64,000 bases of DNA, taken from NCBI RefSeq assembly GCF_988243305.1, contig NZ_OZ547136.1. One strand, given 5' to 3'. How positions within the stretch are numbered: the stretch's first letter is position 1; every line of letters begins with the position of its first letter. The position numbers were made by a program, and so were the translations under genes. A model generated the notes under the pieces. It was not told where the DNA came from. It saw only the letters and a list, made by a program, of their open reading frames with translations, and searched no databases. Shown here piece by piece: positions 6,320-64,000 of this stretch.

Positions 6320-6464
6320 CATTACCCTAACTGACGGAAATTTCCAAGTCCGCATAGTTTAGCGATAATCCCCGTGAATGCTATAGGATAAGCGATAAAA
6401 ATAATGAATTATTGCGGAGGTAACAAAAGACAATCAGGGCGTAAATAGCCCTGATAACAAGATG

Positions 6465-7640
<1,176 letters not shown>

Positions 7641-7820
7641 TCAGAATTAACTTAACTGTGAATCATGATGTTTTTAGCATCCTGATAAGAGCTAAAAGTT
7701 TTAACGCTACGTTGTTCGATGGTCAACGCAACGAAAAACAATTCAGATTTTCTTTATAAGAATAGCTGATATTTATTAAGTTAATATTAAGCAGTGAAAT
7801 TTAGTCTATAAGATAATTGG

Positions 7821-10819: not shown

Positions 10820-10843
10820 ATAAAAACCTTACCAATAATAAAA

Positions 10844-11602
10844 TTATTTATGCGCAAATAATTGCATTAGTTTTGATATTTTTCTGATAATGATAGCAAT
10901 TTTCCAATTTACATTATGGTTTTTCATAACTTCTACAATTTCCTTTGTACTTGATATCGCGTTATCAATTCTGGTACTTTCCCCACCCAATCTCATCTTT
11001 ACAAATACTTGAGGAACATAAATAACTTTAATATCATCACGTTTCAAAATCCTGACCATCTGATCATAGTCTGCAGCAATCCTATAGGATAAATCAAAAT
11101 ATCCATCGTCTTTATATAATTCCCTCCTCATATAGAAAGATGGATGCGGTGGTGCCCAGCCTAATGATAGCTTAGAACGTTTAAAAGGACCACTACGCCA
11201 GTATCGTTTGATTATATCAATTTGGTTTTTTTCGAAAAAAACCAAATCACCGTATACAACATCCGCTTTTGTCTCATGGAAACGGCTTACAATAGTTTCA
11301 ATAATATCAGGTCTTGCTAAAAGGTCATCAGAATGAACGAATCCAATAATATCTCCCGTAGATAAATTTATACCTTTATTTAAAGCATCATAGATACCGT
11401 TATCGCTTTCTGATAGACATTTGGTTACTCTTGTTGATACTTCGTTAATTAGTTTTAACGTATTATCTGTAGAACCACCATCAATAATTATATACTCTAT
11501 ATCTTTATAGGTTTGCAACTCTATTGACTCTAAAGTATCCCTTAAAGTCTTTTCACTATTATAAGTCACTGTAATAATACTGACTTTCATTTTAACATCC
11601 AA
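10844..11602 (-). CDS. glycosyltransferase, family 2-like
   Basis: 252 aa ORF; N-terminal SIITVTYN...DGGSTD motif typical of GT-A fold; AT-rich; start may be the internal Met at MKVSIIT. Confidence 0.75.
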   Translation of the reverse strand: MDVKMKVSIITVTYNSEKTLRDTLESIELQTYKDIEYIIIDGGSTDNTLKLINEVSTRVTKCLSESDNGIYDALNKGINLSTGDIIGFVHSDDLLARPDIIETIVSRFHETKADVVYGDLVFFEKNQIDIIKRYWRSGPFKRSKLSLGWAPPHPSFYMRRELYKDDGYFDLSYRIAADYDQMVRILKRDDIKVIYVPQVFVKMRLGGESTRIDNAISSTKEIVEVMKNHNVNWKIAIIIRKISKLMQLFAHK

Positions 11603-11673
11603 TAATAATCATAATTAAATAACGTCAGTACCGCATTACGAATAATAATGTTGCATTAGTATCCAGCATCATT

Positions 11674-13074
11674 TTAGATTCTAACAACATCATCTTCATC
11701 CAAGTAAACACCTGAACGTACCTCAATAATCTCCAAAGGGATCTTTCCTGGATTCTCAATAAAATGAGGTACACCTATTGGTATATAAGTTGATTCATTT
11801 TCAGAAACAAGAAATATTTCATCTTCATAATGGACTTTTGCTGTTCCAGAAACAACAATCCAATGCTCAGTACGATGGTAATGAATCTGTTTAGCAGTTT
11901 TATGTCCAGGATGAATAACGACATGTTTAACCTCAAATCGAGATCCTTCCGCTATAGAGTCATGACTGCCCCATGGCCTAAATATTTCACGATGCTGCAG
12001 ATATTCCGTACGGTTATTAACTTTAAGTTTTTCTACAATATTTTTTACCTGTTGAACTTTATCTTTATGCGCAACGAGAATAGCATCTTTAGTTTCAACA
12101 ACTACTAAATCTTTAACTCCTACTACACCAATTAATCTATGTTGTGAGTAAAGATAACTGTCAGAAGAATCATGAATTAATACATCTCCTCTAATTGCAT
12201 TTCCACTTTTATCTTTTCTGCTAATTTCCCATAATGCAGACCAAGAACCAACATCGCTCCAGTGGGCATTTAATGGAACTACCACAGCCTCTGTTGTTTT
12301 CTCCATAACAGCGTAATCAATGGATTCTTCAGGGCAACAACTAAATGAGTCATTATCTATACGGATAAAATCAAGATCTTGTGTAGAGGACTTCAATGCT
12401 TGTTGGCATATTTTTAGTATGTCTGGTCTAAATTTATTCAACTCATCAATAAACACAGAAGCCCTAAACATGAATATTCCACTATTCCAAAGATAATCTC
12501 CATCTTCAAGATATTTTTTGGCCACATCTAGCTCAGGCTTTTCAACAAAAGCAGAAACTTTAAAACCATATTCATTTAAATTTTCTCCGGTTTTTATATA
12601 GCCATATCCAGTTTCGGGTTTGGTTGGCACAATACCAAAAGTTACCAGCTTACCTTCCTCTGCAAATTCTTTTGCAGCCAATATTGACGATATAAAGCGC
12701 TTTTGGTCTTGTATTTCATGATCGGCTGCTAGTACAAGCAGTATTGGATCCTCACCTGATGAAATCGCTTTAAGAGCAGCAAGCGCAACTGCGGGGGCAG
12801 TATTACGACCTACCGGCTCTAGTAAAATGCCACTATTCGCTAAATTTACATTACGCATCTGTTCTGCAACGATAAAACGATGAACTTCATTACAAATAAC
12901 CAGAGCAGGACGATGTTCAACCCCTTCAAGCCTTCTTAAGGTCTCTTGTAGCATAGTCAAACGACTAGTTAACGACAGGAATTGCTTCGGATATAGTGTT
13001 CGAGAAAGTGGCCACAATCTAGTTCCAGAACCACCGGCCATTACAACAGGAAGTAGCATATAAATAACCTTCAC
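11674..13074 (-). CDS. manC: mannose-1-phosphate guanylyltransferase, O-antigen cluster copy
   Basis: 466 aa ORF; [19 protein letters not shown] nucleotidyltransferase motif; paralog of the colanic acid copy but divergent and AT-rich. Confidence 0.88.
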   Translation of the reverse strand: MKVIYMLLPVVMAGGSGTRLWPLSRTLYPKQFLSLTSRLTMLQETLRRLEGVEHRPALVICNEVHRFIVAEQMRNVNLANSGILLEPVGRNTAPAVALAALKAISSGEDPILLVLAADHEIQDQKRFISSILAAKEFAEEGKLVTFGIVPTKPETGYGYIKTGENLNEYGFKVSAFVEKPELDVAKKYLEDGDYLWNSGIFMFRASVFIDELNKFRPDILKICQQALKSSTQDLDFIRIDNDSFSCCPEESIDYAVMEKTTEAVVVPLNAHWSDVGSWSALWEISRKDKSGNAIRGDVLIHDSSDSYLYSQHRLIGVVGVKDLVVVETKDAILVAHKDKVQQVKNIVEKLKVNNRTEYLQHREIFRPWGSHDSIAEGSRFEVKHVVIHPGHKTAKQIHYHRTEHWIVVSGTAKVHYEDEIFLVSENESTYIPIGVPHFIENPGKIPLEIIEVRSGVYLDEDDVVRI

Positions 13075-13526
13075 TTAAAATAATTTTTTGTGTACTGATG
13101 AACTGAGGAATTAGCTAACAATTCGGCTATATCGAACCAATTGTAAGTACTATGTTGTAGTGTTGGATAGTTAATTTGATGTGGCATCAAACTAATCTCA
13201 TATCCGTGTACGACATAATGAGTTGAAAAACAAGTCCCAGAAAAATTGTCGCTGTAGAAATGTTCATAAATCCCAAGAAATTTTGCTTCATTAATGCTAA
13301 TTTGAACACCCAATTCTTCAAAAGTAACTCTTTTGAATGCGTTCTCGAAAGACTCATCTTTAAGAATCCGTCCCCCCGGCACAAACCAATAATTTTGTGC
13401 TGGACGATTAAGGCGCTGACCAAGCAGCGCCTTACCATCTTCGTTTCTTATAATAAGGTCTATCGAGATTAGTGGAGTATGTTCAACTATTGATTTAAAT
13501 AACTCTGTTTCTAATCTCTTGTTCAA
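13071..13526 (-). CDS. gmm: GDP-mannose mannosyl hydrolase (Nudix)
   Basis: 151 aa ORF, Nudix-like, between fcl and manC as in the colanic acid cluster. Confidence 0.8.
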   Translation of the reverse strand: MNKRLETELFKSIVEHTPLISIDLIIRNEDGKALLGQRLNRPAQNYWFVPGGRILKDESFENAFKRVTFEELGVQISINEAKFLGIYEHFYSDNFSGTCFSTHYVVHGYEISLMPHQINYPTLQHSTYNWFDIAELLANSSVHQYTKNYFK

Positions 13527-13528
13527 TA

Positions 13529-14494
13529 TTAACTCCTAAATGAGTCAAGATTATTTATAAACCATTTATATGTTAATTCTAGTCCTTGTTTTAAATTATA
13601 ACGATATTTCCAGCCCAAATTCTCAAGGCGTGTAACATCCATAAGTTTACGAGGCGAACCATCTGGTTTTGTTATATCAAAAACAATTTTTCCATCATAG
13701 CCAACAACTAAAGCCATTGTTTCTGCCATTTCACGTATGGAACAATCAACACCAGTACCTACGTTAATATGAGATAACATTGGTTGAGTATTTTTTTTAT
13801 AAATTTCATCATCAAGCTCCATCACATATACTGATGCAGCTGCCATATCATCAACATATAAAAACTCGCGTTTTGGAGTTCCCGTTCCCCAGACAACCAC
13901 TTCATTTAAACCAAGTTCCTTTGCTTCATGAAAACGCCGCATAAGCGCTGGAATTACATGTGAGTTATTGGGATGAAAATTATCATTCATACCATATAAG
14001 TTAGTAGGCATTACACTGCGATAATCACATCCATATTGGCGATTATAAGATTCACATAGCTTTATACCTGCTATTTTGGAAATAGCATAAGGCTCATTAG
14101 TAGGCTCAAGAGTTCCCGTCAAAAGTGCAGATTCTTTCATTGGCTGTTCTGCAAACTTTGGATAGATACAACTTGACCCTAAGAATAATAGTTTCTTTAT
14201 GCCCGCTTTATAAGATGAGTGAATAATATTGCTTTCAATGAGAAGGTTCTGATAAATAAATTCAGCTGGAAAAGTGTTATTAGCATGAATTCCTCCTACT
14301 TTTGCTGCTGCAAGGTAAACCTGATCTATTCTCTCTTGCTCAAAAAAACATTCAACATCCTTTTGAACTGTCAAATCGAGTTCTTTGTGAGTTTTGACAA
14401 TTAACTCAACATCATTACGTGCTAATAATTGACGACAAATAGCAGAACCAACCATCCCACGATGTCCAGCCACAAAAATTCGCTTCTTGGTCAT
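13529..14494 (-). CDS. fcl: GDP-L-fucose synthase
   Basis: 321 aa ORF; N-terminus [13 protein letters not shown] matches the colanic acid Fcl paralog. Confidence 0.88.
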
Positions 14495-14497
14495 ACT

Positions 14498-15619
14498 TTA
14501 ACGCTCCAAAGAGACTGCCACGTCAAAACCATGGCTTTTAAGAAGTGCATGCTGTTTAGCTTTTTCTAAATCACTAGCCACCATTTCTGCACACATTTCT
14601 TCAACTGTAATCTCTGGCTCCCAACCCAAGACATTTTTTGCTTTTGTTGGATCACCAAGAAGAGTTTCAACTTCTGCTGGTCGAAAATAACGAGGGTCAA
14701 CGCGAACAATAACATCACCAATATTAACACCAACGGCGCAATCTGATGTTTTATTTACAACCATTGCAACCTCATCAACACCAGTACCGGAAAACTCAAG
14801 TTCAAGTCCAACTTCTTTAGCAGACATACGGACAAATTCACGTACAGATATTTGTTTGCCAGTGGCAATAACAAAGTCTTCTGGCTGGTCTTGTTGAAGC
14901 ATCATCCATTGCATACGAACATAATCTTTCGCATGCCCCCAATCACGTAAAGAATCCATGTTGCCAAGATATAAGCATTTTTCTATTCCCTGCGAAATAT
15001 TAGCTATAGCACGTGTGATTTTACGTGTTACAAACGTTTCCCCACGACGTGGGGATTCATGATTGAACAAAATACCGTTGCATGCATACATTCCATAAGA
15101 CTCACGATAGTTTACAGTGATCCAATATGCATACAGTTTAGCTACGGCATAAGGTGAACGAGGATAGAACGGCGTTGCCTCTTTTTGTGGAACTTCCTGA
15201 ACTAATCCATACAATTCAGAGGTTGACGCCTGATAAAATCGGGTTTTTTTTTCTAATCCCAAAAAACGAATAGCTTCCAATAATCGTAAAGTACCTATAG
15301 CATCAACATCAGCTGTATATTCTGGGGATTCGAAGGAAACAGCTACGTGACTCATTGCTCCGAGGTTGTAAACTTCATCAGGTTGAACTTCAGATAATAT
15401 ACGAGTCAAATTAGAAGTATCTGTTAAGTCACCATAATGAAGGTGTAATTTTAAATTAATATTATGGGGATCTTGGTATATATGGTCAATACGTCCAGTA
15501 TTAAAAATAGAAGAACGTCGTTTTATTCCATGAACCTCGTAACCTTTATTTAGTAGAAACTCTGCCAAATATGAACCATCTTGACCAGTAATGCCAGTAA
15601 TTAATGCTTTCTTTGTCAT
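14498..15619 (-). CDS. gmd: GDP-mannose 4,6-dehydratase
   Basis: 373 aa ORF; [20 protein letters not shown]-terminus, highly similar protein to the colanic acid Gmd, but AT-rich DNA. Confidence 0.9.
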
Positions 15620-15629
15620 AAAATTATTC

Positions 15630-16664
15630 CTACAGTAGTTTCTTGTAAATATCGATAGTTTTGTCAGTACATTTTTTCCAAGAAAAACGTTGTGCTTGAG
15701 ATAAACCTTTCTTAATAATTTGATTTCGATTTCTATTTATAAATGATATACCATCAATAAGGTTGCTTATACTTAACTCATCCATCAAATAACCGGCGTC
15801 ACCTGCAACCTCTGGTATTGAGGAGTGATTATACGCAATGAATGGGCATCCTGCCCTCATTGCTTCTAAAAGAGGAATACCAAATCCTTCATAACTTGAC
15901 GGATAAATAAGAGAATGAGCTTGATTAAATTTTAGATTCAACTCTTGCTCAGTTAAATATGGATAATGAATATATCGATATGGTATATATTTATCAAGTA
16001 AAAATTTCTCAGCCTTTCCCAAAGGGCCTCCACCTACAATATATAGTTTGAACCCCTCTAATTTGTTTATTGCTTCAACTGCAAGTTGAAAGTTTTTATA
16101 TGCTTTTCTCGAACCAATAAAAAGCATGAAATTATCATCATCGTTATAATTAACGTTTTTTAATTCATAAAAATTATCAGACACCCCATTGTGAATGATT
16201 TCGATTTTACTTTCAGGTACTGGACAATACCTCAACAAATCATTGGCAGTATTTTCTGAAATGCAAATTATTTTATCACTGTTTTTTATAGCATTGTACT
16301 TCTGATGACAATGAACGTATTTACGTAAACCTGACATATATTTTTCATATGTAAAGTCATGTACTGTTGTTATGTTTTTATTTTTTTTGCCCTTACTAAA
16401 TCTATAATAACTAGAATGTAATAGAGAGTTTTCAGGAATATCAACAGCTCGATACCTTTCAAGAAAGCGAGGATATAGATTAATATAACGTCCAGGTTGT
16501 CGCACATCTTCACTTATAAATTGACAGCCTGTATTCTCATAGTTTAATATCGTATATTCAATATTTGTGGCTTTTATCGCTTTTATTATTTGATTATAAT
16601 AAACAGAAATGCCACCGTATGACTGGAGATTATATATAATACCATCCAAATATAACATAGGCAC
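15630..16664 (-). CDS. glycosyltransferase, GT-B fold (family 1/4-like)
   Basis: 344 aa ORF; C-terminal [19 protein letters not shown] motif typical of GT4 retaining transferases. Confidence 0.75.
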
Positions 16665-16673
16665 CTTTTATAT

Positions 16674-17687
16674 TTAATTGTATCCATCAGGATTTAGCGT
16701 ATGCCATTTCCACGCAGAAGAAAGCATTTCGGTCAAATCTCGCCTAGCCTTCCAGTCCAGTTCTTTTTCAGCTTTGGAAACATCCGCCCAACATTCTGCA
16801 ACATCGCCGCTTCGGTTAGGGCCAAAACTATAATTAATATTTTTCCCAATAATTGATTGAAATGTTTTTATTACTTCTAATACAGAATATCCTCTACCCG
16901 TACCTAAGTTATATATTTTATAATTTCCTCCTTTGCCAAACATTTTAAATGCTGAAATATGCCCCTCAGCTAAATCATTTACATGAATATAATCTCTGAT
17001 ACCAGTCCCATCAGGCGTTGGATAGTCATGACCATAAATAGTAAGCGCAGGTAATTTACCTAAAGCAACATTCATCATATATGGAACTAAGTTAGCAGGA
17101 GTACCTCTGGGATTTTCACCTATTAACCCAGACTCATGCGCCCCCACTGGATTAAAATATCGCAAAATAATCACATCTAATTTAGGGTTTGCCAGAGAAG
17201 CATCTTTTAATATAACCTCGGAGTAATATTTACTGGTCCCGTATGGATTCGTTGTTTCACCTATACGACATTTTTCATTGATAGGTATCGTTTCTGGAAG
17301 ACCGTACACCGTAGCAGATGAGCTAAAGATAATTTTATTTACATGAAAGATCTTCATTAACTCTAACAAATTTAAAAGCCCAACAATATTATTCATATAA
17401 TAACGTATAGGACTTTGAACTGATTCTGAGACAGACTTAAGGCCTGCAAAATGTAATACTTTAGAGAATGTGTGATTCGTGAATATAGTCTTTAATTCTT
17501 TTTTGTCCAATAAATCTACCTTATATGCTCTGATTTTCTTACCACTAAGCTTTGAAATGACTTTGATGATATCTTCTGTAGAATTAGAAAAATTATCTAT
17601 GATGACAACGTCTTCATTCTGCTCCAATAATGACAGAACAGTATGGGACCCAATATATCCAGCTCCACCCGTAACTAATATTGTCAT
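16674..17687 (-). CDS. NAD-dependent sugar-nucleotide 4-epimerase (GalE family)
   Basis: 337 aa ORF; VTGGAGYIGSH Rossmann motif and YGTSK catalytic motif; substrate not determinable from sequence. Confidence 0.8.
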   Translation of the reverse strand: MTILVTGGAGYIGSHTVLSLLEQNEDVVIIDNFSNSTEDIIKVISKLSGKKIRAYKVDLLDKKELKTIFTNHTFSKVLHFAGLKSVSESVQSPIRYYMNNIVGLLNLLELMKIFHVNKIIFSSSATVYGLPETIPINEKCRIGETTNPYGTSKYYSEVILKDASLANPKLDVIILRYFNPVGAHESGLIGENPRGTPANLVPYMMNVALGKLPALTIYGHDYPTPDGTGIRDYIHVNDLAEGHISAFKMFGKGGNYKIYNLGTGRGYSVLEVIKTFQSIIGKNINYSFGPNRSGDVAECWADVSKAEKELDWKARRDLTEMLSSAWKWHTLNPDGYN

Positions 17688-17696
17688 AAAAACACC

Positions 17697-19019
17697 TTAT
17701 TTGAATTTAAAAAAAACTATTTGCATCGATAATCTCAAGCATATGTATGCCATAAAGAACATACCTAATTCAAATATCATAGAAGAAAACTCTGAGCGTT
17801 GGAAATTGATAGATTGGGAAAGAAAAACAAGATAAAGAAAATAGTTGCTCCCAATTAACCTTTCCATTATATATGAATAACCACATAAAATGGCAGGAAA
17901 TATAATTACACCATAATAATTATAATTAATAAAAGCTTCTGTAAAAGGAGTAAATGCATATCCCATCATAAACTCTTGACTTGGCAAATAAACTTCCTTT
18001 GCAAATTGAATAGCTAATGTGTCTGGCTTTAATCCCATAAATAATTCTTTTGGTATAAAGTTTACAATGAACTGAAGATAGGATATACCAAAAAATTGAG
18101 TCTGATAATGTATCGAAGAATAATATTGAAGTGTAGATATAGGATAAATAAATTCACCCAAAGCATTCAATAATCTTATGCTTGATTCGACATTATAATC
18201 TGAACGATATATCCCAAAAAGTATAATCGTTGATACAAATAGAATACTGAACAACGCTACTTTTAATGGTATCTTAAATTTAGCTTTATAAAGTGATAGC
18301 AATACAGCCATAATAAAAGATAAAGCAATTTCTCGTCTTGAACCTACCAGCATTAAAGTATAAAAATATAAAAGCACAGGTATGCTGTATATTACGAAAC
18401 TATAATTTGTGAGACTTTTTTTTACTATCTTTAAATCAAGTAAAATCCAAAAATAAGCAATAACCACATATTTCAGATACCATCCACTTTGACTTACCGA
18501 ATTAATTAACTCTAGGCGAGTACTTTCGCCCAAAGCATTCAGAGAAAGATTTCTTGATTGATATAGAAAAAATAATGATATTAACCATGCTATGCATGAT
18601 GGAATAAATAGATTATAGTTATTGTCATAGTTATATTGTTTGTTTAAAAGAAATATATTGATACCGTGAGGCCTAATCAAACTAATCGATGCAACTATAC
18701 ACCAAACAGCAACACAATATAAGAATGAAGTGTTGATTATATTATTTTCAACATTAAATACATTAACACCAAAAAAATAATACAACAAAAAAGACACAAA
18801 AAAATAAAAAGGCGATAATATTATAAATATTCCATCAAACCATACCCACATTCGATTATATACAAAAAAAAGAATTGCAATTGTAAATATTACAGATAAA
18901 AACCAAATTAGGATAGCATCAATTTCAACTTTGACAGAAGTGCTCAATACAGCAATCATTATCAACCCAATAAAGCCATAAAATTGAGCCAATACCAGTT
19001 TGTATTGTTTATAAATCAT
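17697..19019 (-). CDS. wzy: putative O-antigen polymerase
   Basis: 440 aa, very hydrophobic multi-spanning ORF, very AT-rich, within O-antigen cluster; assignment by topology and context only. Confidence 0.6.
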   Translation of the reverse strand: MIYKQYKLVLAQFYGFIGLIMIAVLSTSVKVEIDAILIWFLSVIFTIAILFFVYNRMWVWFDGIFIILSPFYFFVSFLLYYFFGVNVFNVENNIINTSFLYCVAVWCIVASISLIRPHGINIFLLNKQYNYDNNYNLFIPSCIAWLISLFFLYQSRNLSLNALGESTRLELINSVSQSGWYLKYVVIAYFWILLDLKIVKKSLTNYSFVIYSIPVLLYFYTLMLVGSRREIALSFIMAVLLSLYKAKFKIPLKVALFSILFVSTIILFGIYRSDYNVESSIRLLNALGEFIYPISTLQYYSSIHYQTQFFGISYLQFIVNFIPKELFMGLKPDTLAIQFAKEVYLPSQEFMMGYAFTPFTEAFINYNYYGVIIFPAILCGYSYIMERLIGSNYFLYLVFLSQSINFQRSEFSSMIFELGMFFMAYICLRLSMQIVFFKFK

Positions 19020-19854
19020 ATTTTAACAATCCCGTCCAGAAACCGATTAATCTGTACATATATAATTTTTTTTGTTTTTTTAAAACGATACCAAAAAATG
19101 ATTTTACTGTGATCCTGAAAATTTCCAATAGTAATAAATAACGAGATTTCACTAAATACTTCTTTATCACGACACCATATCCAACTGCATATTTTCTGTA
19201 TTTTTCTGGTATCCCTTCACAATATAAATCATTATCGTGATAAACTCCAAATATAGGTTGAAAACATACTCTAAACCCAAGAGATTTCAGCCGAAAAAAT
19301 AACTCCGTTTCTTCGGATCCACCGAATAAAGTACCAACACCTAACCTTTCATCAAAATATATATTATCGAGTTTATGAGTAAAAATAAAAGTACCCACAC
19401 TTAGTGACGATTTAATTATTTGATTATAACCCATTTCCTTTTTAGTTTTAGGATAAACTCTATTGGCATAAGATTTCATTGTTTGAAAATCTAATACAGG
19501 AACTGAAAGAACGGTTTCTTTTTTGATATTTGATTGAATCACCTTCTCAAAAAAATCAGGAGCATAAAAAGCATCATCATCACAGAACCCAATAACATTA
19601 CCACTGCATAGTTTAAGCCCTTGATTACGAGCAGTTGAAAGTGGTACTTTATTTGATTTAACCAACTTGTATTTTATATTTTTTGCGTGTTTTAAAAATA
19701 ATTGCTCAATTATGATATCATCAGTCTGATCAATAAATATAATTTCTAGGTTTTTGTACGTACTGCTAGCTATGCTATTTAGCAGTCGTTCAATTTCTTT
19801 ATCCCTTCCACCTTGAGTTGTGCCTATCAAACTAATTTTATAAAAGTTATTCAT
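19009..19854 (-). CDS. putative glycosyltransferase
   Basis: 281 aa ORF in O-antigen cluster, GT2-like N-terminal region, overlaps wzy by 11 nt. Confidence 0.6.
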   Translation of the reverse strand: MNNFYKISLIGTTQGGRDKEIERLLNSIASSTYKNLEIIFIDQTDDIIIEQLFLKHAKNIKYKLVKSNKVPLSTARNQGLKLCSGNVIGFCDDDAFYAPDFFEKVIQSNIKKETVLSVPVLDFQTMKSYANRVYPKTKKEMGYNQIIKSSLSVGTFIFTHKLDNIYFDERLGVGTLFGGSEETELFFRLKSLGFRVCFQPIFGVYHDNDLYCEGIPEKYRKYAVGYGVVIKKYLVKSRYLLLLEIFRITVKSFFGIVLKKQKKLYMYRLIGFWTGLLKYDL

Positions 19855-19855
19855 A

Positions 19856-20776
19856 TTAATATCCTTTTTTTAAGATTGAATTAATCTTTATTTTACAATA
19901 ATAAGCAAATTTTCTAAGAAAAACACCATTTATATATTTAATCTTTACTCCTAACTTAGAAAAAATAATAAAATACACCTTAAAATAATAACAAATAGCA
20001 TTAAGAAAACGATGACTTGATTGCGGAAACAAAACCATCCCTAGCTCATCTTTATCGAGAATAATCCCCTGTTTTTTTAAATTACCAATGGCAATAGATA
20101 TGTGAATATCTGCTTGTATATGCTTTTTTATATTCGATATTTGATTTCCGTGATTTCGATAATAAAGCAAGGGTATATTTATATTACAGAATTTTCCGTA
20201 GTTTGCTAATCTACTCCAAAACTCATAATCTTCAGCATATTGGTAGCGTGGCTTATAATATAGGCATTCTTTTTTTATAATGCTGCTTCTCATCATTACA
20301 GTTGGATGAGCAAAACAACTGCCCACCAACAATCCTATTTTACAGGCTTCGTCTGAGTTAGGCATTTTTATAATTTTTCCGCTATTAACAGCTGACTCAA
20401 AAACTTTGATATTAGTTCCACAACACGCTATTTTTTGATCTGCATCCATTATTTCAACTTGTAATCTCAACCTTTCTCTGTGAGCAATATCATCAGCATC
20501 CATTCTAGCAATATACACTCCCGTAGCCATGTCTAATAATTCATTTAAAGTAGCTACTATCCCTTTATTTTCTCTATGCTTAATTTTGAATATCGCGGGA
20601 TATTTATTTTTATATTCATCAAGTATCTTTTGTGTACCATCCTGCGAGCCATCATTGATGATGATAATTTCAAATATTTTATATGTTTGTTCCAATATAC
20701 TGTCAATGCATGCGCCTAAGTATTTTTCAGCATTATATACCGGTATTATAACGGATACTTTGTTTTTATTAATCAT
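19856..20776 (-). CDS. glycosyltransferase, family 2
   Basis: 306 aa ORF; VSVIIPVYNAEKYL...INDGSQD motif. Confidence 0.78.
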   Translation of the reverse strand: MINKNKVSVIIPVYNAEKYLGACIDSILEQTYKIFEIIIINDGSQDGTQKILDEYKNKYPAIFKIKHRENKGIVATLNELLDMATGVYIARMDADDIAHRERLRLQVEIMDADQKIACCGTNIKVFESAVNSGKIIKMPNSDEACKIGLLVGSCFAHPTVMMRSSIIKKECLYYKPRYQYAEDYEFWSRLANYGKFCNINIPLLYYRNHGNQISNIKKHIQADIHISIAIGNLKKQGIILDKDELGMVLFPQSSHRFLNAICYYFKVYFIIFSKLGVKIKYINGVFLRKFAYYCKIKINSILKKGY

Positions 20777-20782
20777 AATATA

Positions 20783-22054
20783 TCATACTTTGTTTTTATT
20801 AAGCAGATAACAGATCGTTACTATTAAGGAGAACATATATAATGCTTGAGATATTATATACGCTTTAAAAACATAAGAAATTTGAGCATTTTCGACGTAG
20901 CATAACGAATACTTACTTAATATACAATATACAGACCATTGTAACACTTCTAACACTATATATTCTTTTACGAATGCTTTGCTAATCAGCAAATAACCAA
21001 GCACCCATGCAATTATCTTAAAAAAATCTCCAATTAGTTGATAAACTATAACATCAACAATAGGAACGAACTCGTGTGTAAATAGAATATTTACTATCAA
21101 ACCGCGAAATGTATACATCAAGACTGAAGATATACAAACTAACGGAACCAAATACAAATAACAAACTTTTATTTCATTAAGCAATTCTGAACGGTTAGAT
21201 GCACTTGAAAACCTTGGAAAGAAATATACCCCCAATGTAGTCGTAATTAACATCAAATAGACTGAACTTATTCTATTAACAGCATCCCACAACCCAGCAT
21301 ACTCAATATTTATTGATGTTATGATTTCATTTCTCACATATAACGTACTAACTGGCACTAATATAGCTGAAGTGACTGTCATTAAAGAAAAAATTATGAT
21401 CCGTTTTAATATTGAAATATCAATTCGATTGCAATTATTAACATAGTATTCTCTTAAATATTTTTTTGAGTAAAAAAAAGTCACAAAAAACAATATAGCT
21501 TGATTTGAAACTACAGCAATCAATGCTCCTCTCATACCAAAAGAGATTGTCAATATAAAGGCGTATATTGCAGATATTAAACTCGATATGATATTAATCC
21601 ATATATAATTTTTAATAAATGACAATCCATTTAACATAGAAAGAATTATATTATTCCATGCATATAAAATAACACTCCCTCCCAAGAAATAAATTGCGAT
21701 GCTTACTTCATCATTAGAATTGAAAAATTGTTCGATAATTATATTTTTAAAGATAATTATGATAACAGCGGTTATAAATCCCATTATAGTAGACAAATAA
21801 ATTGCATTAATCCAAAAACTCCAGATTTTTTCCTTATTACTATTCTTATACTCTGACGTATACTTAACAATACTCGTTGAAATAGCTTGTGATGGCGCAA
21901 CCATAGCTATATTAAGGATATTTTGGATTTGGCCAATAAGTGCATATCCAGACGTACCTAAATATATTGCGAATACTTTATTAAGTCCAAGTAGAGTTGC
22001 TATTTTGACAAATACAGAAAGGCCATTAAGAATAAAGACATTATATACTTTCAC
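20783..22054 (-). CDS. wzx: putative O-antigen flippase
   Basis: 423 aa multi-spanning membrane ORF, first gene after the JUMPstart element. Confidence 0.65.
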   Translation of the reverse strand: MKVYNVFILNGLSVFVKIATLLGLNKVFAIYLGTSGYALIGQIQNILNIAMVAPSQAISTSIVKYTSEYKNSNKEKIWSFWINAIYLSTIMGFITAVIIIIFKNIIIEQFFNSNDEVSIAIYFLGGSVILYAWNNIILSMLNGLSFIKNYIWINIISSLISAIYAFILTISFGMRGALIAVVSNQAILFFVTFFYSKKYLREYYVNNCNRIDISILKRIIIFSLMTVTSAILVPVSTLYVRNEIITSINIEYAGLWDAVNRISSVYLMLITTTLGVYFFPRFSSASNRSELLNEIKVCYLYLVPLVCISSVLMYTFRGLIVNILFTHEFVPIVDVIVYQLIGDFFKIIAWVLGYLLISKAFVKEYIVLEVLQWSVYCILSKYSLCYVENAQISYVFKAYIISQALYMFSLIVTICYLLNKNKV

Positions 22055-46579: not shown

Positions 46580-47719
46580 TTACCAGTTATGAATGTCGCT
46601 GGCTGTATCCGTCATGTAACGGACACCGCTAATAGTTGGCAGCAACTGATTGATCAGACGGTTCCAGCGGGAAACCGGGGCGGTGGTGACATACACCACG
46701 TCATAAGGTTGCAGGCGGAATTCTGTCGCCATCACCAGCGACGTGGCATCGGACATATCCAGCTGGTAGATATTGGCAATCTTGCCGTTACGCCCACCCT
46801 CGCCTTTCAGCGGACGAATGACAAAGATGCCGCTGGCGTTGGAGGTGGTCATGTCGATGCCTTCAGCATTGCCCAGGGCTTCAGTCAGGGTCATGCCGCT
46901 AAAGTCCATTTTCAGGGTGCTCTGTTTTTTAACTTCACCCATCACAAATACTTTCAGATCATCATTACGCGGCACGTAGAGAATATCGCCGGGGTAAAGC
47001 AGTCGGTTCTGATTGAGGTCGCCGTTTTGCATCAGCGCCTGCAAAGAAATGCGTTCTTCACGACCATTGTGTGTTAGCACCACGTTGCGCCAGTCAGCGG
47101 TGTCGGTCAGACCACCTGCGGCGTTGATGGCATCGAGAATGGTCAGTGGTACGTTGGTGATGGCCTGTTGACCGGATTTATTCACCTGACCTGAGATATA
47201 CGCTTTTTGCGAGCGGAAGGCGGCGATATTAACGTCCACCTGCGGGTCAGCGATGTACGTCGCTAAGCGCCCGGTAATATCACTGCGGATTTCAGCGAGC
47301 GTTTTCCCCACCACGTGAACTTTGCCGATATACGGGTAGAACATGGTGCCGTCAGGCTGTACCCAGTTGCCGGTGTCGCTGGAGCTGCGGTACTGACCGG
47401 CTGGCGTGGTAAGTTCCGGGTGATCCCAGACGGTGACATTAAGAACGTCCCCCGGCCCGACGCGATACTGGTAATTCGCGATCTCGCTTTCCAGCGTCAT
47501 ATTGGGGCGCGCTACGTTGGGTCGTGGGCGTAATTGATCAATCAGGCGCGGGGTCAACGGATAAACATTCACCATTTTGTCGAGATCGAAATCAGCGTCC
47601 TGCTGTTTGATGACGTCTTTGCCCATCGTCGACATATTGCTGCCCGGAAGTACTGTGCAACCGCTTATCAAGGTTACTGACACCAATAATGGCATCAATT
47701 TCATTTTGGATTTCATCAT
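46580..47719 (-). CDS. wza: outer membrane polysaccharide export lipoprotein
   Basis: 379 aa ORF with lipoprotein signal (LISGC); first gene of colanic acid operon. Confidence 0.92.
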
Positions 47720-47892
47720 TGTTTATTTATCACTTTGGCAGAGTAATTATCCTGTGCACTATTAATAGCAATGTCGCCATGCACATTTACCTTGCAGTTA
47801 ATTGAATAAAAATTTAACTGGCATCAGTCCTAAAAAAATTGATTTCATCCGCAGGCTATTGACAGAATAATTCAGACTGGTCTTTCAGGCAT

Positions 47893-47935
47893 CCAGACAC
47901 GCTACCGCCCCTGGCTTTTTAGCTACCAATACACT
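47893..47935 (-). promoter_or_regulatory. JUMPstart element with ops site in the leader of the colanic acid operon
   Basis: plus-strand cacgctaccgcc at 47898-47909, reverse complement of GGCGGTAGCGTG, about 180 nt upstream of the wza start. Confidence 0.8.
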
Positions 47936-48377
47936 GATTTAGCTTAATTTTTAAAACCCTCTCAACATACAGTCGTTGATGAGAAAGGGTTATTGCGGAA
48001 ATTAACTTCCGAATATAAGGTGACATTATGGTAATTGAATATTGGCTCTCCAATAATGCAGGAGGAAGTGTTACAGCTAACGGAATAGCAGGCAAGGTAA
48101 CAATTCGGCAATTGGCTATTTTTAAGAATTATATTAAGTGTCATTCAACATGGTTTTTAGGAGTTTCTTTAGGTTGACAATATTTAATATAGTGTCTCCA
48201 CATGCGATATTTCTTAAATAATGTTTTATTATTACCACTTTTAATTCAGGGATAATGTGAGGTTATAAACCTCAAATAATATGAGATAAATAGTGCTGCA
48301 ACATTGCATTTTTGCCCCGATTTATCCATGATCGAATTGTGACATTTGTCATACAACGAATAGGTTTTGTACTTACT

Positions 48378-58032: not shown

Positions 58033-58105
58033 CATATTCCGGTTGTCGCGACGGCAACATTTCGCTAAAGTCACGCCCCTTCTTCACCGGCATGGGGATT
58101 ATTTC

Positions 58106-59470: not shown

Positions 59471-61417
59471 TCAGCAACGGCTTAAATCAGCCTGCGCCTG
59501 AGCCAGTTTTTCTGCCGCCTGACGTAACGGTTCCATCAACGGCATGGTCCGTGCTGGAGCATGAAGGCGGAATCGCTGCAACTCTGTCGCACCGACAGTC
59601 AGCGCCGATTCCAGCCGATGTCGTTTGGCGGCCATTTTTGCCATTACCGCTTGTCTGTCTGCAGGCGTTACCGCTTCGTTCGGCCTGAAAACAAAACGGC
59701 GTTCGCAACTCGCTTTCCAGTCGATAACCGCCTGGGTCAGATGATCACCAAAACCTTTTACTTGCTTAACGCTCCGTCGGGTAACGTCTGCCGCCGTTTC
59801 AATACCAAAGGACCGTAACGCCGCTTTACGCGCAGGGCCAACGCCGGGAATAGAGGCAACATCAATAAAAAATCCCTCCAGAAACTTCTGCTTCTGCCGT
59901 TCCCTTGCGGTGTCCTGAAGTGCTGCCAGATCGCGCTTTTCTTCTTCCGGTAACCCAAGAATTTCGTCCTTCATTTTTTCGAGCATCGTCCGTTTGGCGA
60001 TAAAACCTTCCAGCCCGCCCAACCGTTGGATCTGGCTGACTAAATGGTCATAGTCCATTTTCGCGCGATTAAACGCCTCACGGCGTTGCTGGATTTCTGC
60101 TTTGTACGCTTTGCTTGTCAGGCTGCCAATAATCCAGATAGCCGCCAGCACAGGAACCAAAATAATATAACGCGGTTCTGCCTGAAGGCCGCAAAGCAAC
60201 AGCGATAACGCTGACAGTGCGATCTCAATCAGAATGATGTATTCGCGCCGTAACAGGCCTAAAGGAAGCGGCCTGCCAGTCAGTTGGAAATGATCGGGTA
60301 ATGGCAGTTGCAATGCTGGCGGTGCTACTGACGCCATCACCATCGCCCAGACTTTCGCCAGCACAAAATCACCGCTGGTGGTAATGACCTCTTCGCCGAG
60401 ATCAATAAAATAGATAACGCCTTGATTATCCAGCGCACACCACGGGCAGTCAGTCAAATGACCGGGGTAAACATGCATTGCCGAAACGGTACATTTCTTT
60501 AACTGTTGGCGTAGTAAATCAAGTGCCGCAACCCACGCTTTTGCCGTCGGACGCCCGGTTGCCACGCCACTTTCCGTGAATGCCTGCTGAAACATGGTTT
60601 CAACATCGCCCGGTAACATCGACAGCGGAATAGATCGTGGCGGCGGTTTTAAACCACGTCGCTGATTATCTGACGCGTAGGCATAACGGAAATGGGCAAT
60701 ATCCGTCTCCAGTGCATTACCCGCATCAGAGACAAGCGGTACACCGGAATAAGGATGCCGCCCACCAAACAAGACGTGAAAAATCAGCAACGCAAGGCCA
60801 AAATTATCGTGATTCGCGGTGCGTTCAAAGCCGACAAATGATGGCAAGGTTTGCAGCTCTGGCGGCGTAAAATGCGACACGCCGACTTCGCATAAATGCA
60901 GCGTGCCATTGGCGTTAATCTGAAAGGAGTCGCTATCAATCAACACCACTTTGCTGTCACGGCCTACCATAAAGCTGTTCTGGTTTACGTCACCCACGAC
61001 ATGCCCGTGCTCGTGAACCGTAGCAAAAGATGAAGCAATATTGCGCGCAACATAGAGTAGAAAATCCCACGCACAATGAGGGTAACGTTGGCGACGATGT
61101 GCCGGGCTATAGATCATATGAATCGGTTCTTTACCAGAAACTTTTGGCATCATAAAACCGATAACCTTTCCGCCTCGTCCACCGTGAAGCGTTGCCTGCG
61201 GCCAGGCGACATAATTCAACAATTGCGCGTCAGCTGTCGCAGCCATAAAGGCAAGTTTGTCCTGTTTTAAGGCGGGTGGCGGCGTGTGATAAATCTTGGC
61301 GACACTATCGACAAACTCCTCGATATCATAAACCGCGCCTTCGCCACCTTTTCCCAGTTCACGCCCGAGAGTGGTCAATTCACCTGTCGATGTAAATACT
61401 TTTATATTTGTCTTCAT
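59471..61417 (-). CDS. yegI: eukaryotic-like Ser/Thr protein kinase family membrane protein
   Basis: 648 aa ORF; N-terminal glycine-rich loop LGKGGEGAVY followed by VAKIY lysine motif; central hydrophobic segments; C-terminal extension. Confidence 0.85.
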   Translation of the reverse strand: MKTNIKVFTSTGELTTLGRELGKGGEGAVYDIEEFVDSVAKIYHTPPPALKQDKLAFMAATADAQLLNYVAWPQATLHGGRGGKVIGFMMPKVSGKEPIHMIYSPAHRRQRYPHCAWDFLLYVARNIASSFATVHEHGHVVGDVNQNSFMVGRDSKVVLIDSDSFQINANGTLHLCEVGVSHFTPPELQTLPSFVGFERTANHDNFGLALLIFHVLFGGRHPYSGVPLVSDAGNALETDIAHFRYAYASDNQRRGLKPPPRSIPLSMLPGDVETMFQQAFTESGVATGRPTAKAWVAALDLLRQQLKKCTVSAMHVYPGHLTDCPWCALDNQGVIYFIDLGEEVITTSGDFVLAKVWAMVMASVAPPALQLPLPDHFQLTGRPLPLGLLRREYIILIEIALSALSLLLCGLQAEPRYIILVPVLAAIWIIGSLTSKAYKAEIQQRREAFNRAKMDYDHLVSQIQRLGGLEGFIAKRTMLEKMKDEILGLPEEEKRDLAALQDTARERQKQKFLEGFFIDVASIPGVGPARKAALRSFGIETAADVTRRSVKQVKGFGDHLTQAVIDWKASCERRFVFRPNEAVTPADRQAVMAKMAAKRHRLESALTVGATELQRFRLHAPARTMPLMEPLRQAAEKLAQAQADLSRC

Positions 61418-61617
61418 AATGTTTTAAGGGCAGTCATATTATATTTTAATGAATAATAACACTGCCCATTATAATTATTTCCATATTGGAAGAGTCCCAC
61501 TCAAGAATAAAAATGATAATGCAATTTCATCAGGATACAATTCAATTCCAACCTGATAATGATTCACTTCCACAGATTTTTTGCTAACTTTTACTACACA
61601 GGGATTCTGGAAAAAAG

Positions 61618-62079
61618 ATGAAAAAGATATTACTTATGTTGAGTCTGCTATTTTTTACTACCGCGGGCTTTAGTGAAGTTTCGGATACGTTAGTGACGGG
61701 AGGTTATGATAAACAAGCGATGTCTGACGCCATTCAACATGCGCGGAAAGAAACCGATCAATTCATCGAAATTATGAATAAAAAAGATGCCGATACTTTC
61801 GCGGTCAAAGCCCCGATAACCGATCACGGAAGAACAGAGCATTTCTGGCTTACGGATGTCACTTATTCTAACGGCATGTTTATTGGCGTAATAAGCAATG
61901 ACCCTGGTATTGTTACAAACGTAGAATATGGTCAGGAGTGGAAAATCAAGAAAGAAGATATTTCAGACTGGATGTATACGCGCGGGGATAAAATTTACGG
62001 CGGTTATACCATTGATCCTTTATTAGTCACCTATCCAAAAGAAGAAGCCGACGAGCTAAGAGCAAAATTAGTTCGCTAA
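61618..62079 (+). CDS. yegJ: secreted protein of unknown function
   Basis: 153 aa ORF with N-terminal signal peptide (MKKILLMLSLLFFTTAGFS); AT-rich. Confidence 0.8.
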   Translation: MKKILLMLSLLFFTTAGFSEVSDTLVTGGYDKQAMSDAIQHARKETDQFIEIMNKKDADTFAVKAPITDHGRTEHFWLTDVTYSNGMFIGVISNDPGIVTNVEYGQEWKIKKEDISDWMYTRGDKIYGGYTIDPLLVTYPKEEADELRAKLVR

Positions 62080-62143
62080 CCAGCCATTATATTGATTGCT
62101 TAAACTGGCGGTTGAACTGTTGTCTTCAACCGCCATGCGATGT

Positions 62144-62905
62144 TCATTCTGTCCACAGCGCCAGTGCCAACGTTTTATCATCATCCGTACGCTCGTTTAC
62201 CGCCGGGCTGGACAAAAACTGCTTTAACAATTCAGGTAATAAATCGAGTTGTTCCTGCGTTGCTGACGCCAGTCCATTGAAAAACGGGGTAAAAAAAGGC
62301 ACATGCGGAGAATTATTCAACATATTTAACGCCAGCCTCTGAATACCATCCGTAAATGCTGCAACTTTATGCGCACGCTCAGTACTGGTGTAAGTTTCCA
62401 GTCTGGAAACAGCATCGTCATCGGTAATGAAGTGCGTCATGTTGGCATATTCACCCACCATCGGCGTGAGAGGCAATTGCAGACCGTGACCCAAATCTAC
62501 CACCATGCCGCCATCGCCAATCTGCATAATCAAGGTGCCGTCAGGCGATGAAATCAGTCCCAGAAATGTACAGGCAAAATCGCGAACCGCTAATTCTTTG
62601 GCCTCTGCCTCGGCAAAAAGTCGCTGACGAATGGTCAGCACAATATCCGTGGCGAGGACATCATTAAGCCCCAATTCCCCACCCTGCACTTTTTGCGACA
62701 TATAAGCCATCGCTTCATTGACGGCGAGCATCGCGCCTTCGCCACCCTGCGAGACGCTGCCTGCGCCATCAGCGACAAATACCGACAATAATGGCTGCTG
62801 GTCATTTAACCAGGCAACCTGCATCTGGCAGGCATCCTGGCAAGGCAAGTCCGCGCTGATGTGCGACGTTCCAACGGTTGATGCATAGACCAGACGCCAG
62901 CTCAC
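62144..62905 (-). CDS. yegK: PP2C-family protein phosphatase
   Basis: 253 aa ORF; acidic metal-binding motifs (VADGAGS, DGG); 4-bp overlap with yegL. Confidence 0.82.
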
Positions 62906-63561
62906 ACTGACGTCCAGCCTTTTGGCGCTTCCAGCACAACTTCCGTTCCCGGCGTGGAGCGGGAAACCGAACGCAGCGAACTGGATAACCAGCTAAACAG
63001 TTCACGGAATTGTAATCCCTGCAGTGGCAAAGGCTGACGAACGCTGATTTGTGCCAAAGTCTTCATATCCGCCCCCTGAACACCGATGGAAAAGAAGGCA
63101 AACTTCTTATCTTCTTCCCCCTGAAACACTTTGTTGGCGGCAGCCTGCCACTCATCGGTTGGAGCGCCATCGGTGATCAGGAAAATCCACGGGCGATAAT
63201 AGGAAATACCATTGGCGCGATACTCACGTTTGCGCTCCTCAACCATATCCAGGGCTTTGGTAATGGCGGCCCCCATTGGTGTATCGCCCTGGGCAAACAG
63301 GATGGGCGGGAAAAAATTAGCGGCGCTGGTAAAGGGTTGTTCCACATGCACCGGGCCGAACGTCACAATACCGAGTTCCACTCTTTTTAAGGCCAGCGGA
63401 TCGGCAAGCAGTTCATCGCGAAAGGTAACCAATCCGGCGTTAAGTTCATTAATAGGTCTACCACTCATCGAACCAGAAACATCCAACAGCAAAATGCAGG
63501 GGCAACGTGGTTCCGGGTTACTGGCAAAATCGCTGGTGGCAAACGTGATTTGTTCGCTCAT
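62902..63561 (-). CDS. yegL: von Willebrand factor A domain protein
   Basis: 219 aa ORF with MIDAS-like motif LLLDVSGSM. Confidence 0.82.
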
Positions 63562-63739
63562 AAGAAATCCTTTCTTAGAGAATTATTGAGGTCCGGTATC
63601 ATACCGATTGCAATAATGAAATAAGAGCAAACGAAGAAACTTTCAGAATTAGGCCCGGCGGCGCAGAAAATTTTGCTATTCGCCTCGCAAGAACGGAGAG
63701 CCGTCGATTGACACTAAGGGCGGAGTGACATAATTTCAG

Positions 63740-63885
63740 GAGTGAGGGTTAGGGAGAGGTTTCTCCCTCCCCCTGGTGTTCTTAGTAAGCCTGGAAGCTA
63801 ATCACTAAGAGTATCTCCAGTATGATGACGTGCTTCATCATAACCCTTTCCTTATTAAAAGCCCTCTTCTCCGGGAGAGGGTTTC
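63740..63885 (+). ncRNA. Sib-family antisense RNA (antitoxin of Ibs), boundaries approximate
   Basis: plus-strand region fully overlapping the minus-strand Ibs ORF, ending at a hairpin plus T-tract; locus position after yegL matches the recalled sib/ibs location; 5' end not determinable from sequence. Confidence 0.5.
63782..63841 (-). CDS. Ibs-family type I toxin, 19 aa hydrophobic peptide
   Basis: hand translation of the minus strand gives MMKHVIILEILLVISFQAY followed by a stop; not in the ORF track because it is below the length cutoff. Confidence 0.65.
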   Translation of the reverse strand: MMKHVIILEILLVISFQAY

Positions 63886-63890
63886 CCGTT
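63861..63890 (+). terminator. rho-independent terminator, probably of the Sib RNA
   Basis: hairpin ccctcttctccgggagaggg followed by tttcccgtttc. Confidence 0.6.
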
Positions 63891-64000
63891 TCAGCGTCCC
63901 GCTGAAATCGTCGGCTTACCTCCTTTCGCCCTGAATGCAGTCTATCGCTAACGCGTGAACAAAATAGTTTCCTCTGTGATTATTGCGTAACGACTCGCAA

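Follow-up and report, generated by a model that had tools for sequence, protein, structure and literature searches.

One question raised by the yegD-yegI-yegJ-pphC-yegL locus of Escherichia coli (pphC is also known as yegK) is how a short, AT-rich gene came to lie, on the opposite strand, between the genes for a protein kinase and a protein phosphatase, and whether its product belongs with the two enzymes that flank it. The copy of the locus considered here is found in a stretch of 64,000 nucleotides from contig NZ_OZ547136.1 (assembly GCF_988243305.1), referred to below as the window. The explanation favored here, which is probably correct as a whole, is that an acquired insertion of about 790 bp split a pre-existing operon, that yegJ is silenced by H-NS, and that YegJ is an exported orphan protein of the immunity type and not a component of the YegI/PphC module.

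The open reading frames of the window and the names used in RefSeq bear out the coordinates, the gene order, the strand of yegJ and its divergence from yegI as they were first described (Table 1), and a Pfam match identifies YegD as Hsp70-like. Base composition changes sharply across the locus, with yegJ at 40.5% G+C (40% at third codon positions) and the 200-bp gap between yegI and yegJ at 30%, the lowest 200-bp window falling to 28%, compared with 55.9% for yegD, 51.4% for yegI, 51.2% for pphC and 52.4% for yegL. The G+C profile (40% and 30% versus 51-56%) thus agrees with the original prediction, in which yegJ and the 200 bp upstream of it were said to be more AT-rich than their neighbors. 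Equally AT-rich 200-bp windows account for approximately 7% of the whole 64 kb, nearly all of them in a block at ~10.4-22 kb, and outside of this block values of 36% G+C or less occur only at ~7.0-7.8 kb, at ~47.4-48.2 kb and at the yegJ site, which is locally distinct in G+C and neither extreme nor unique within the 64-kb window. The low-G+C stretch is, in addition, exactly the segment that has no counterpart in E. coli strains lacking yegJ, showing that it is a real compositional islet and not noise.

Table 1. Positions in the window of the yegJ locus, the islet and its component parts.
Feature	Position	Strand	Remarks
yegD/yegI/yegJ/pphC(yegK)/yegL locus of E. coli	58043-63561
yegI	59471-61417	-	Ser/Thr kinase; 648 aa here
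yegI, remaining part	59471-61366	-	94-99% identity with yegJ-less strains
yegI, replaced 5' end	61367-61417	-	first 17 codons; 37% G+C
Whole islet	61367-62152	.	786 bp, 37.7% G+C; ~50 bp in yegJ-less haplotypes
AT-rich divergent promoter region	61418-61617	.	30% G+C; H-NS link from literature
Imperfect palindrome GGGCAGTCATATTAT / ATAATAACACTGCCC	61428-61467	.	overlaps yegI promoter
Putative yegI promoter counterpart, GTGTTA-18-TATGAC	61433-61462	-	read from sequence against the K-12 hexamers
yegJ promoter-like site, ATGATA-17-TACAAT	61513-61541	+	consensus scan; hexamers same as K-12
yegJ	61618-62079	+	153 aa; name as in RefSeq annotation of near-identical genomes
Hairpin between convergent yegJ and pphC	62106-62135	.	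perfect 11-bp stem, 8-nt loop
pphC/yegK	62144-62905	-	PP2C phosphatase; Pfam PP2C_2, E = 1.5e-52
pphC, altered 3' end	62144-62152	-	last two codons changed
pphC (minus last 9 nt) and yegL	62153-63561	-	upstream genes of the ancestral three-gene operon
yegL	62902-63561	-	vWA; Pfam VWA, E = 6.4e-10

Of 5426 complete E. coli genomes, 1923 (35%) carry a yegJ coding sequence, which is always chromosomal and usually single copy. Megablast searches of the same 5426 genomes, using positions 61300-62200 as query, found the flanks in 5380 and at least 80% of the query in 1898. The strains with yegJ include enteroaggregative E. coli (EAEC) 042 and avian pathogenic strains, while yegJ-less genomes make up ~64% of all, and most of these possess yegL-pphC-yegI with no yegJ. 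In ST131, O157 and BL21 the flanks are directly adjacent, and the stop codon of pphC and the start codon of yegI share a 4-nt overlap, an arrangement common to most of the complete genomes without yegJ. The overlap reads ATGA, or GTGA in one clade. Carriage of yegJ on phages or plasmids was considered and set aside, as searches returned no phage matches and the gene is absent from true plasmids; the plasmid matches above 90% identity were to E. coli records only, two of them ~4.9 Mb in size and evidently chromosomes, and one of 365 kb covering 58% of the protein.

The borders of the islet were located by blastn of the window against the ST131, O157 and BL21 loci, in which the alignment ends at 61366 and restarts at 62153, such that the segment without counterpart takes in both ends of the neighboring genes. 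On the yegI side, the first 17 codons read MKTNIKVFTSTGELTTL in strains with yegJ versus MKPTLYTATGECVTP in strains without it, with ~56% nucleotide identity over 32 alignable columns, and the encoded proteins are 648 and 646 aa long, respectively. The replaced N-terminus fits, in register, the consensus ..TLFTSKG..V.LGRELG drawn from approximately 100 YegI homologues of other bacteria, and is closer than the native E. coli N-terminus both to this consensus and to the Klebsiella form (LYTSTGD.VTLG). As judged by alignment, the new 5' end is a genuine YegI-family N-terminus derived from a diverged homologue. Among the best 120 YegI matches, a start of the form MKTNIKVF... is carried only by the 648-aa proteins of E. 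coli, and no protein from outside E. coli that could mark the donor has this N-terminus. The YegI N-termini most similar to the replaced 5' end are those of the Klebsiella type. On the other side of the islet, pphC ends in LW-TE-stop in the window, in LW-AE-stop in the K-12-like locus, and in LW-LP-stop, overlapping the yegI ATG, in strains without yegJ.

Two inverted repeats lie within the islet. The hairpin that separates yegJ from the convergent pphC (approximately -19 to -20 kcal/mol, z = -3.0) is kept in EAEC 042 and in the K-12-like locus and is probably a transcript-end or stabilizer hairpin; it does not qualify as an intrinsic terminator, as neither strand has a canonical T-run and a consensus scan called none between the two genes. 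The imperfect palindrome in the spacer (-16.3 kcal/mol, z = -3.8) is degraded in K-12. No known RNA family matched the islet at E <= 1. Deviant G+C, variable presence and a conserved empty site with the ATGA overlap are the attributes of a horizontally acquired islet, and all three are found here. Those of a mobile element are not, as the islet has no mobility gene, integrase, tRNA or tRNA target, terminal repeats or convincing target-site duplication. The sole boundary repeat is a 9-nt direct repeat, TTGTCTTCA, at 61408-61416 and 62120-62128 (8 of 9 positions in K-12), and this was rejected as a target-site duplication or the signature of a mobile cassette, because chance alone should yield approximately two of them per kb, and because the hairpin contains the second copy and would then have to form across the junction. 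Together with yegJ and its own sigma-70 promoter, the islet brought the AT-rich region that now supplies the yegI promoter, the hairpin, and new ends for both flanking genes.

What the islet encodes is a protein with a predicted export signal. The N-terminus of YegJ, MKKILLMLSLLFFTTAGFSE, has two lysines followed by a 15-residue hydrophobic core (Kyte-Doolittle 2.2), and the signal, MKK plus ILLMLSLLFFTTAGF, is organized into the n-, h- and c-regions of a Sec-type peptide, with possible cleavage after residue 16, 17 or 19 under the -3/-1 rule (TTA|G, TAG|F and GFS|E). All six E. coli alleles of yegJ retain this signal, as does the family at large. Most non-enteric homologues have a hydrophobic N-terminus that closes with a cysteine immediately ahead of a conserved PETLV motif, and a few have signals that are not of the lipoprotein type. 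A strict lipobox is present in 49 of 96 full-length matches, a set that includes approximately 23 E. coli or Superficieibacter sequences without one, and most of the others have G-C or A-C at the same place. E. coli YegJ itself lacks a lipobox, the corresponding residues (TTAGFSE) containing no cysteine, and Superficieibacter has the non-canonical AGYCE. The clear signal peptide of the original prediction is thus supported by these predicted regions and, seen across the family, is mostly of the lipoprotein type. Because the signal is family-wide and the E. coli protein has no cysteine, export appears to be a family trait and the lipid anchor to have been lost in E. coli, and YegJ would act outside of the cytoplasm, either as a periplasmic protein or held at the inner membrane by an anchor. 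This assignment conflicts with the cytosolic location given in the databases that Göpel 2026 cites.

Beyond the predicted export signal (residues 1 to ~17), residues 30-153 form the folded domain, for which the AlphaFold model has a mean pLDDT of 87 and shows six strands between flanking helices. Residues 33-146 match positions 2-125 of the 134-position Pfam model DUF2314 (PF10077; E = 2.3e-25, 89.7 bits against a cut-off of 22), and there is no NCBIfam model for YegJ. DUF2314 was described by Zhang et al. 2012 (PMC3482391) as Imm34, a predicted immunity family of polymorphic toxin systems with a mostly beta fold, an ExxW motif and a conserved C-terminal D. YegJ shares this fold in the AlphaFold model and has these motifs, and across 24 sequences of the YegJ subfamily E74, F76, W77 and D117 do not vary. 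Homologues of YegJ are rare in enterobacteria. The nearest relative outside of E. coli is found in Superficieibacter (75% identity), where a solitary yegJ, again an AT-rich islet, occupies the yegD-mdtA interval and the kinase operon is missing, and the other relatives, from a search of 100,044 species genomes, come from Verrucomicrobia, Planctomycetes, Acidobacteria, Omnitrophota and a few others (45-63% identity).

The neighbors of E. coli yegJ are yegI and pphC only, with no toxin gene or polyimmunity locus beside it. The contexts of the distant homologues are mixed, and include a tandem second DUF2314 lipoprotein with small ORFs (locus L026), a run of small ORFs (L031) and housekeeping neighbors (L028 and L029); no recognizable toxin domain was found among the neighboring ORFs examined. 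A literature search found no report of immunity activity for any DUF2314/Imm34 member. Assignment of the module to a known defense system was also rejected, as PADLOC returned no match for YegJ, PphC or YegL and only marginal matches to kinase domains (PD-T4-6, E = 1e-4). As far as motifs and predicted fold can indicate, YegJ is most likely an orphan small binding protein of the immunity type and not a YegI/PphC signaling component.

A different function has been proposed by Göpel 2026, in which YegJ would be a cytosolic protein that binds RNase E. YegJ was recovered 48 times as a two-hybrid interactor of the catalytic half of RNase E, the full-length protein fused to T25 also scored positive, and a pull-down with Rne 1-529 succeeded in vitro (Göpel 2026). 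Furthermore, overproduction of YegJ had effects on the transcriptome, and some destabilization of rRNA persisted in a Δrna mutant (Göpel 2026). However, residue 16 is the first one in the recovered fragments, and in the fusions T25 precedes the signal, such that the domain would be trapped in the cytoplasm in these assays, whereas the lipoprotein or Sec signals found throughout the family point to an extracytoplasmic site. The same study found that overproduction of YegJ is toxic, compromises the inner membrane, switches on Cpx and Psp, and exposes rRNA to degradation by RNase I, and with yegJ-strep, which retains the native N-terminus, the phenotype is one of envelope stress (Cpx, Psp) and membrane leakiness. 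Also counting against such a role, the gene is silenced by H-NS and missing from most strains, whereas RNase E is universal. The data of Göpel 2026 would fit an exported YegJ better than a cytoplasmic one, the contact with RNase E then being non-physiological, and a cytosolic RNase E-binding role is improbable.

A second alternative would make YegJ a partner in the periplasm, or a ligand-binding component, that feeds signals to the YegI kinase/PphC phosphatase module. A partner role of this kind was the functional suggestion of the original prediction, and is slightly less probable again. The idea draws on the position of yegJ inside the module, on the foreign 5' end of yegI, which suggests that yegJ already lay beside a yegI homologue in the donor, on the location of YegI at the inner membrane (Göpel 2026, citing Rajagopalan 2020), and on the observation that overexpression of yegJ strongly raises yegD transcripts, from which a common pathway was speculated (Göpel 2026). 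Against this, module and gene are readily found apart. yegJ is absent from ~64% of E. coli genomes and from all three outgroup operons considered below, and homologues of YegI, PphC and YegL occur within 6 kb of yegJ homologues at 0 of 21 loci outside of E. coli, a sample that includes Superficieibacter and 19 further loci in Verrucomicrobia, Planctomycetes, Acidobacteria and others. Co-occurrence of yegJ and yegI, which had been suggested as a check, therefore gave the opposite answer to the one expected, with no conserved synteny, and the occurrence of yegJ in genomes without the module is an outcome that the original prediction had named as its refutation. The insertion of yegJ, moreover, breaks the coupling of the two enzymes and adds nothing to the operon, and the adjacency of yegI and yegJ in the donor is something that was inherited with the insertion and is no evidence of function. 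The topology of the kinase is equally unfavorable, because the membrane segments of YegI (392-412 and 416-436) are adjacent and the loop that joins them has ~5 residues, so that the kinase domain and the C-terminal domain both face the cytoplasm and essentially no periplasmic part, and no periplasmic domain, is left to which a partner could bind.

The outgroups bear on which arrangement of the locus came first. In Escherichia marmotae and in Escherichia sp. 93.1518 (cryptic clade), the operon lacks yegJ, occupies the same slot between mdtA and yegD, has the 4-nt overlap and encodes a YegI of 646 aa, and Klebsiella spallanzanii has the three-gene module without yegJ, again with a 4-nt overlap, at a different chromosomal site; pphC ends at 5004 and yegI starts at 5001 in the extracted loci of all three. 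A deletion of yegJ would need to rebuild the 4-nt overlap exactly, which makes insertion the derived event. The converse, that yegJ is ancestral at the site and the yegJ-less arrangement a product of deletion, could appeal to the Superficieibacter yegJ in the same yegD-mdtA interval and to a diversity of yegJ within E. coli that is as deep as that of the flanks, yet it is highly improbable given that the pphC/yegI overlap is common to E. coli, E. marmotae, the cryptic clade and, at another locus, an operon of Klebsiella, that the YegI N-terminus of yegJ-bearing strains is of a non-Escherichia type, that the composition of the islet is foreign, and that homology between the yegJ regions of E. 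coli and Superficieibacter reaches no farther than 29 nt ahead of the start codon on one side and the stop codon on the other.

On the favored explanation, the ancestral state would have been a translationally coupled yegL-pphC-yegI operon, later split by a horizontally acquired, strain-variable insertion of ~790 bp. The whole block may have entered E. coli by homologous recombination from a donor operon that already contained yegJ, with crossovers in the conserved GRELGKGGEG-coding stretch of yegI and in the conserved end of pphC, and later movement of the islet between E. coli lineages would also have occurred by homologous recombination. When the K-12-like locus, which has yegJ, is compared with BL21, which does not, the two are 100% identical from ~62501 through yegL, and 96-98.5% identical from the 3' half of pphC leftwards through yegD. 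Superficieibacter was rejected as the direct donor, as DNA homology is limited to the gene and the 29 nt upstream, at 75% identity and with dS saturated. Nevertheless, its copy in the same interval leaves room for an older enterobacterial history of yegJ at this site. Among E. coli alleles, dS in yegJ reaches 0.15, indicating that the polymorphism is old and not recent, and dN/dS is 0.05-0.22, values from which yegJ is judged to be kept by purifying selection where it is present. Read from the gene arrangement, yegI in yegJ-bearing strains has no translational coupling to pphC, and the islet would also have cut yegI off from the pphC transcript, so that expression of kinase and phosphatase would be uncoupled.

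The displaced kinase gene must then be expressed from the spacer that it shares with yegJ. This spacer is 87-90% identical between the K-12-like locus and either the window or EAEC 042, as compared with ~98% for yegJ itself. In K-12, Shimada 2014 (PMC3946193) listed the spacer as 'yegI < HNS > yegJ', with constitutive RpoD promoters in both directions (TTGTTA-18-TATAAC for yegI and ATGATA-17-TACAAT for yegJ). The two promoters that the original prediction placed in the gap correspond to this divergent pair, and the yegJ hexamers are intact in the window. The counterpart of the yegI promoter was missed by a consensus scan and is, on paper, weaker than the K-12 version; only 15 nt separate the end of its -10 element from the ATG, and a Shine-Dalgarno sequence is lacking. 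A 2020 study of a Δhns mutant of EAEC 042, in which yegJ has the locus tag EC042_RS12365, recorded a rise in the yegJ transcript of 223-fold at 25 °C and 6.4-fold at 37 °C, and both Rajagopalan and Dworkin and Göpel et al. found the locus to be expressed little or not at all in standard culture. Silencing of yegJ by H-NS is thus established in the literature, and the yegI promoter would lie within the same H-NS-marked spacer.

These observations can be combined into a single, more specific reading, which is possible but on balance doubtful in its entirety. YegJ would be an exported, formerly lipid-anchored protein of the Imm34 type, with relatives mainly in Verrucomicrobia and Planctomycetes, that is silenced by H-NS, serves as an orphan immunity or binding protein against a toxin acting on the envelope, and is held under purifying selection in a third of E. 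coli, whereas the contact with RNase E and the decay of rRNA would be effects of mislocalization or overload. The islet and the foreign 5' end of yegI, imported as one, would in the same reading switch a mobile vWA-PP2C-kinase module from coupled to uncoupled, H-NS-gated expression.

Two practical consequences follow. K-12 may differ from B-type and pathogenic E. coli in the expression of the YegI kinase and PphC phosphatase, because in K-12 yegI and pphC are no longer co-translated and the kinase would depend on a promoter in the H-NS-marked spacer, and caution is warranted when extending K-12 results on the YegI/PphC module to other strains. If YegJ is exported, the RNase E interaction reported by Göpel 2026 needs to be re-examined. 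Beyond these two points, the islet is an ordinary small xenogeneic insertion.

Much of the groundwork has already been published, including the difference between K-12 and B strains (2018, 2020), the promoters and the H-NS mark (2014), derepression in a Δhns mutant (2020), the toxicity of overexpression (2026) and the equation of DUF2314 with Imm34 (2012). Rajagopalan, Nagle and Dworkin 2018 (bioRxiv 10.1101/303594; J Bacteriol) and Rajagopalan and Dworkin 2020 (bioRxiv 10.1101/819920; FEBS Lett), in work that accompanied the biochemistry of the YegI kinase by Rajagopalan and Dworkin, noted that K strains carry yegJ between pphC and yegI on the opposite strand while REL606, O157 and others have the ATGA overlap of pphC and yegI, and suggested that yegJ disrupts coordinated expression. 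What is added here is modest, and consists of the 35% frequency, the exact junctions, the replaced 5' end of yegI and the polarity drawn from outgroups, together with the presence of yegJ at the same place in Superficieibacter, an export signal that runs through the family, and the loss of the lipobox cysteine.

Four comparisons with known systems place the islet in context. In the Rajagopalan papers and in Göpel 2026, where it is described as 'only present in E. coli K strains', yegJ is a peculiarity of K-12, whereas it is found here in 35% of complete genomes. As an element, the islet resembles the xenogeneic silencing islets of enterobacteria in its low G+C, variable presence, H-NS mark and derepression in Δhns mutants. 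Unlike the usual H-NS-silenced islets, it comprises one gene in ~0.8 kb, has no mobility genes, lies within an operon and not at a tRNA or intergenic hotspot, and also leaves a resident kinase gene dependent on a promoter region marked by H-NS. Periplasmic lipoprotein immunity proteins that act against envelope-acting effectors are small, exported or lipid-anchored, often orphan, and variable between strains. With the Imm34/DUF2314 family (PMC3482391), YegJ shares the E74-H-F-W77 motif, D117, a mostly beta fold and a spread through Verrucomicrobia and Planctomycetes; it differs from Imm34 systems in that E. coli yegJ stands apart from any adjacent toxin gene or polyimmunity array, and in that the YegJ subfamily carries export or lipoprotein signals.

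A homologue of YegJ with 75% amino acid identity is found in Superficieibacter sp. 1612_C1, where its gene occupies the slot that yegJ has in the E. coli chromosome, which in Superficieibacter is devoid of yegL, pphC and yegI. The Superficieibacter islet, like that of the window, is AT-rich, with a G+C content of 35-48% versus approximately 60% for the genome, and a REP-like GC-rich hairpin lies upstream of the yegJ homologue. Further AT-rich stretches of the window are listed with the other features in the table.

Coordinates of features associated with the yegJ islet and of other AT-rich stretches
Feature	Sequence	Coordinates	Remark
Exact 9-nt direct repeat	TTGTCTTCA	61408-61416 and 62120-62128
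15-nt imperfect palindrome	GGGCAGTCATATTAT / ATAATAACACTGCCC	61428-61467	Overlaps presumed yegI promoter
yegJ homologue, Superficieibacter sp. 1612_C1		L005 (comparison locus), 5728-6920	Alone between yegD and mdtA
AT-rich stretch		~7000-7800
AT-rich block, ~11 kb		~10400-22000	27-36% G+C
AT-rich stretch		~47400-48200

Near its ends, the islet in the window carries a short direct repeat, one copy of which spans the yegI start codon while the other sits within the hairpin adjoining the pphC stop codon, and which is matched at 8 of 9 positions in K-12. We do not claim this repeat as a target duplication, because chance alone would give about two 9-nt direct repeats in a 1-kb stretch. The imperfect palindrome has a folding energy of -16.3 kcal/mol (z = -3.8) and a degraded counterpart in K-12, and could be a protein-binding site.

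Among E. coli strains, the diversity of the 5' half of pphC (window 62501-62905) is unusually deep for a chromosomal gene of this species. Identity is only 87-89.6% in several comparisons of the window, EAEC 042 or ST131 with the K-12-like locus, BL21 or O157, and 91.6-95.3% in the remaining pairs, apart from the pair formed by the K-12-like locus and BL21, which are 100% identical; for comparison, yegI is 94-98% identical between strains. In strain 510016 (L041), which lacks yegJ, two IS1A copies lie within the locus, one separating yegI from pphC and a second breaking pphC into two pseudogene pieces. Downstream of yegL are ibs/sib type I toxin repeats (window 63729-64000; comparison loci L001-L004 and L034), whose annotated copy number differs by strain, from 2 to 4. 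At the yegD end of the locus, the longest yegD ORF begins with a TTG codon at 58043 and encodes 471 aa. Because the RefSeq annotation is of 450 aa, and the NCBIfam alignment to the longer ORF begins at residue 22, the true start is probably 21 codons downstream.

In Klebsiella spallanzanii (L037), the vWA-PP2C-kinase trio lies at an unrelated site of the chromosome, its genes compactly arranged and overlapping by 4 nt, and the match list includes YegI homologues of approximately 60% identity in Piscinibacter, Chromobacterium, and many metagenomes. Thus, the three-gene module itself looks to be horizontally mobile.
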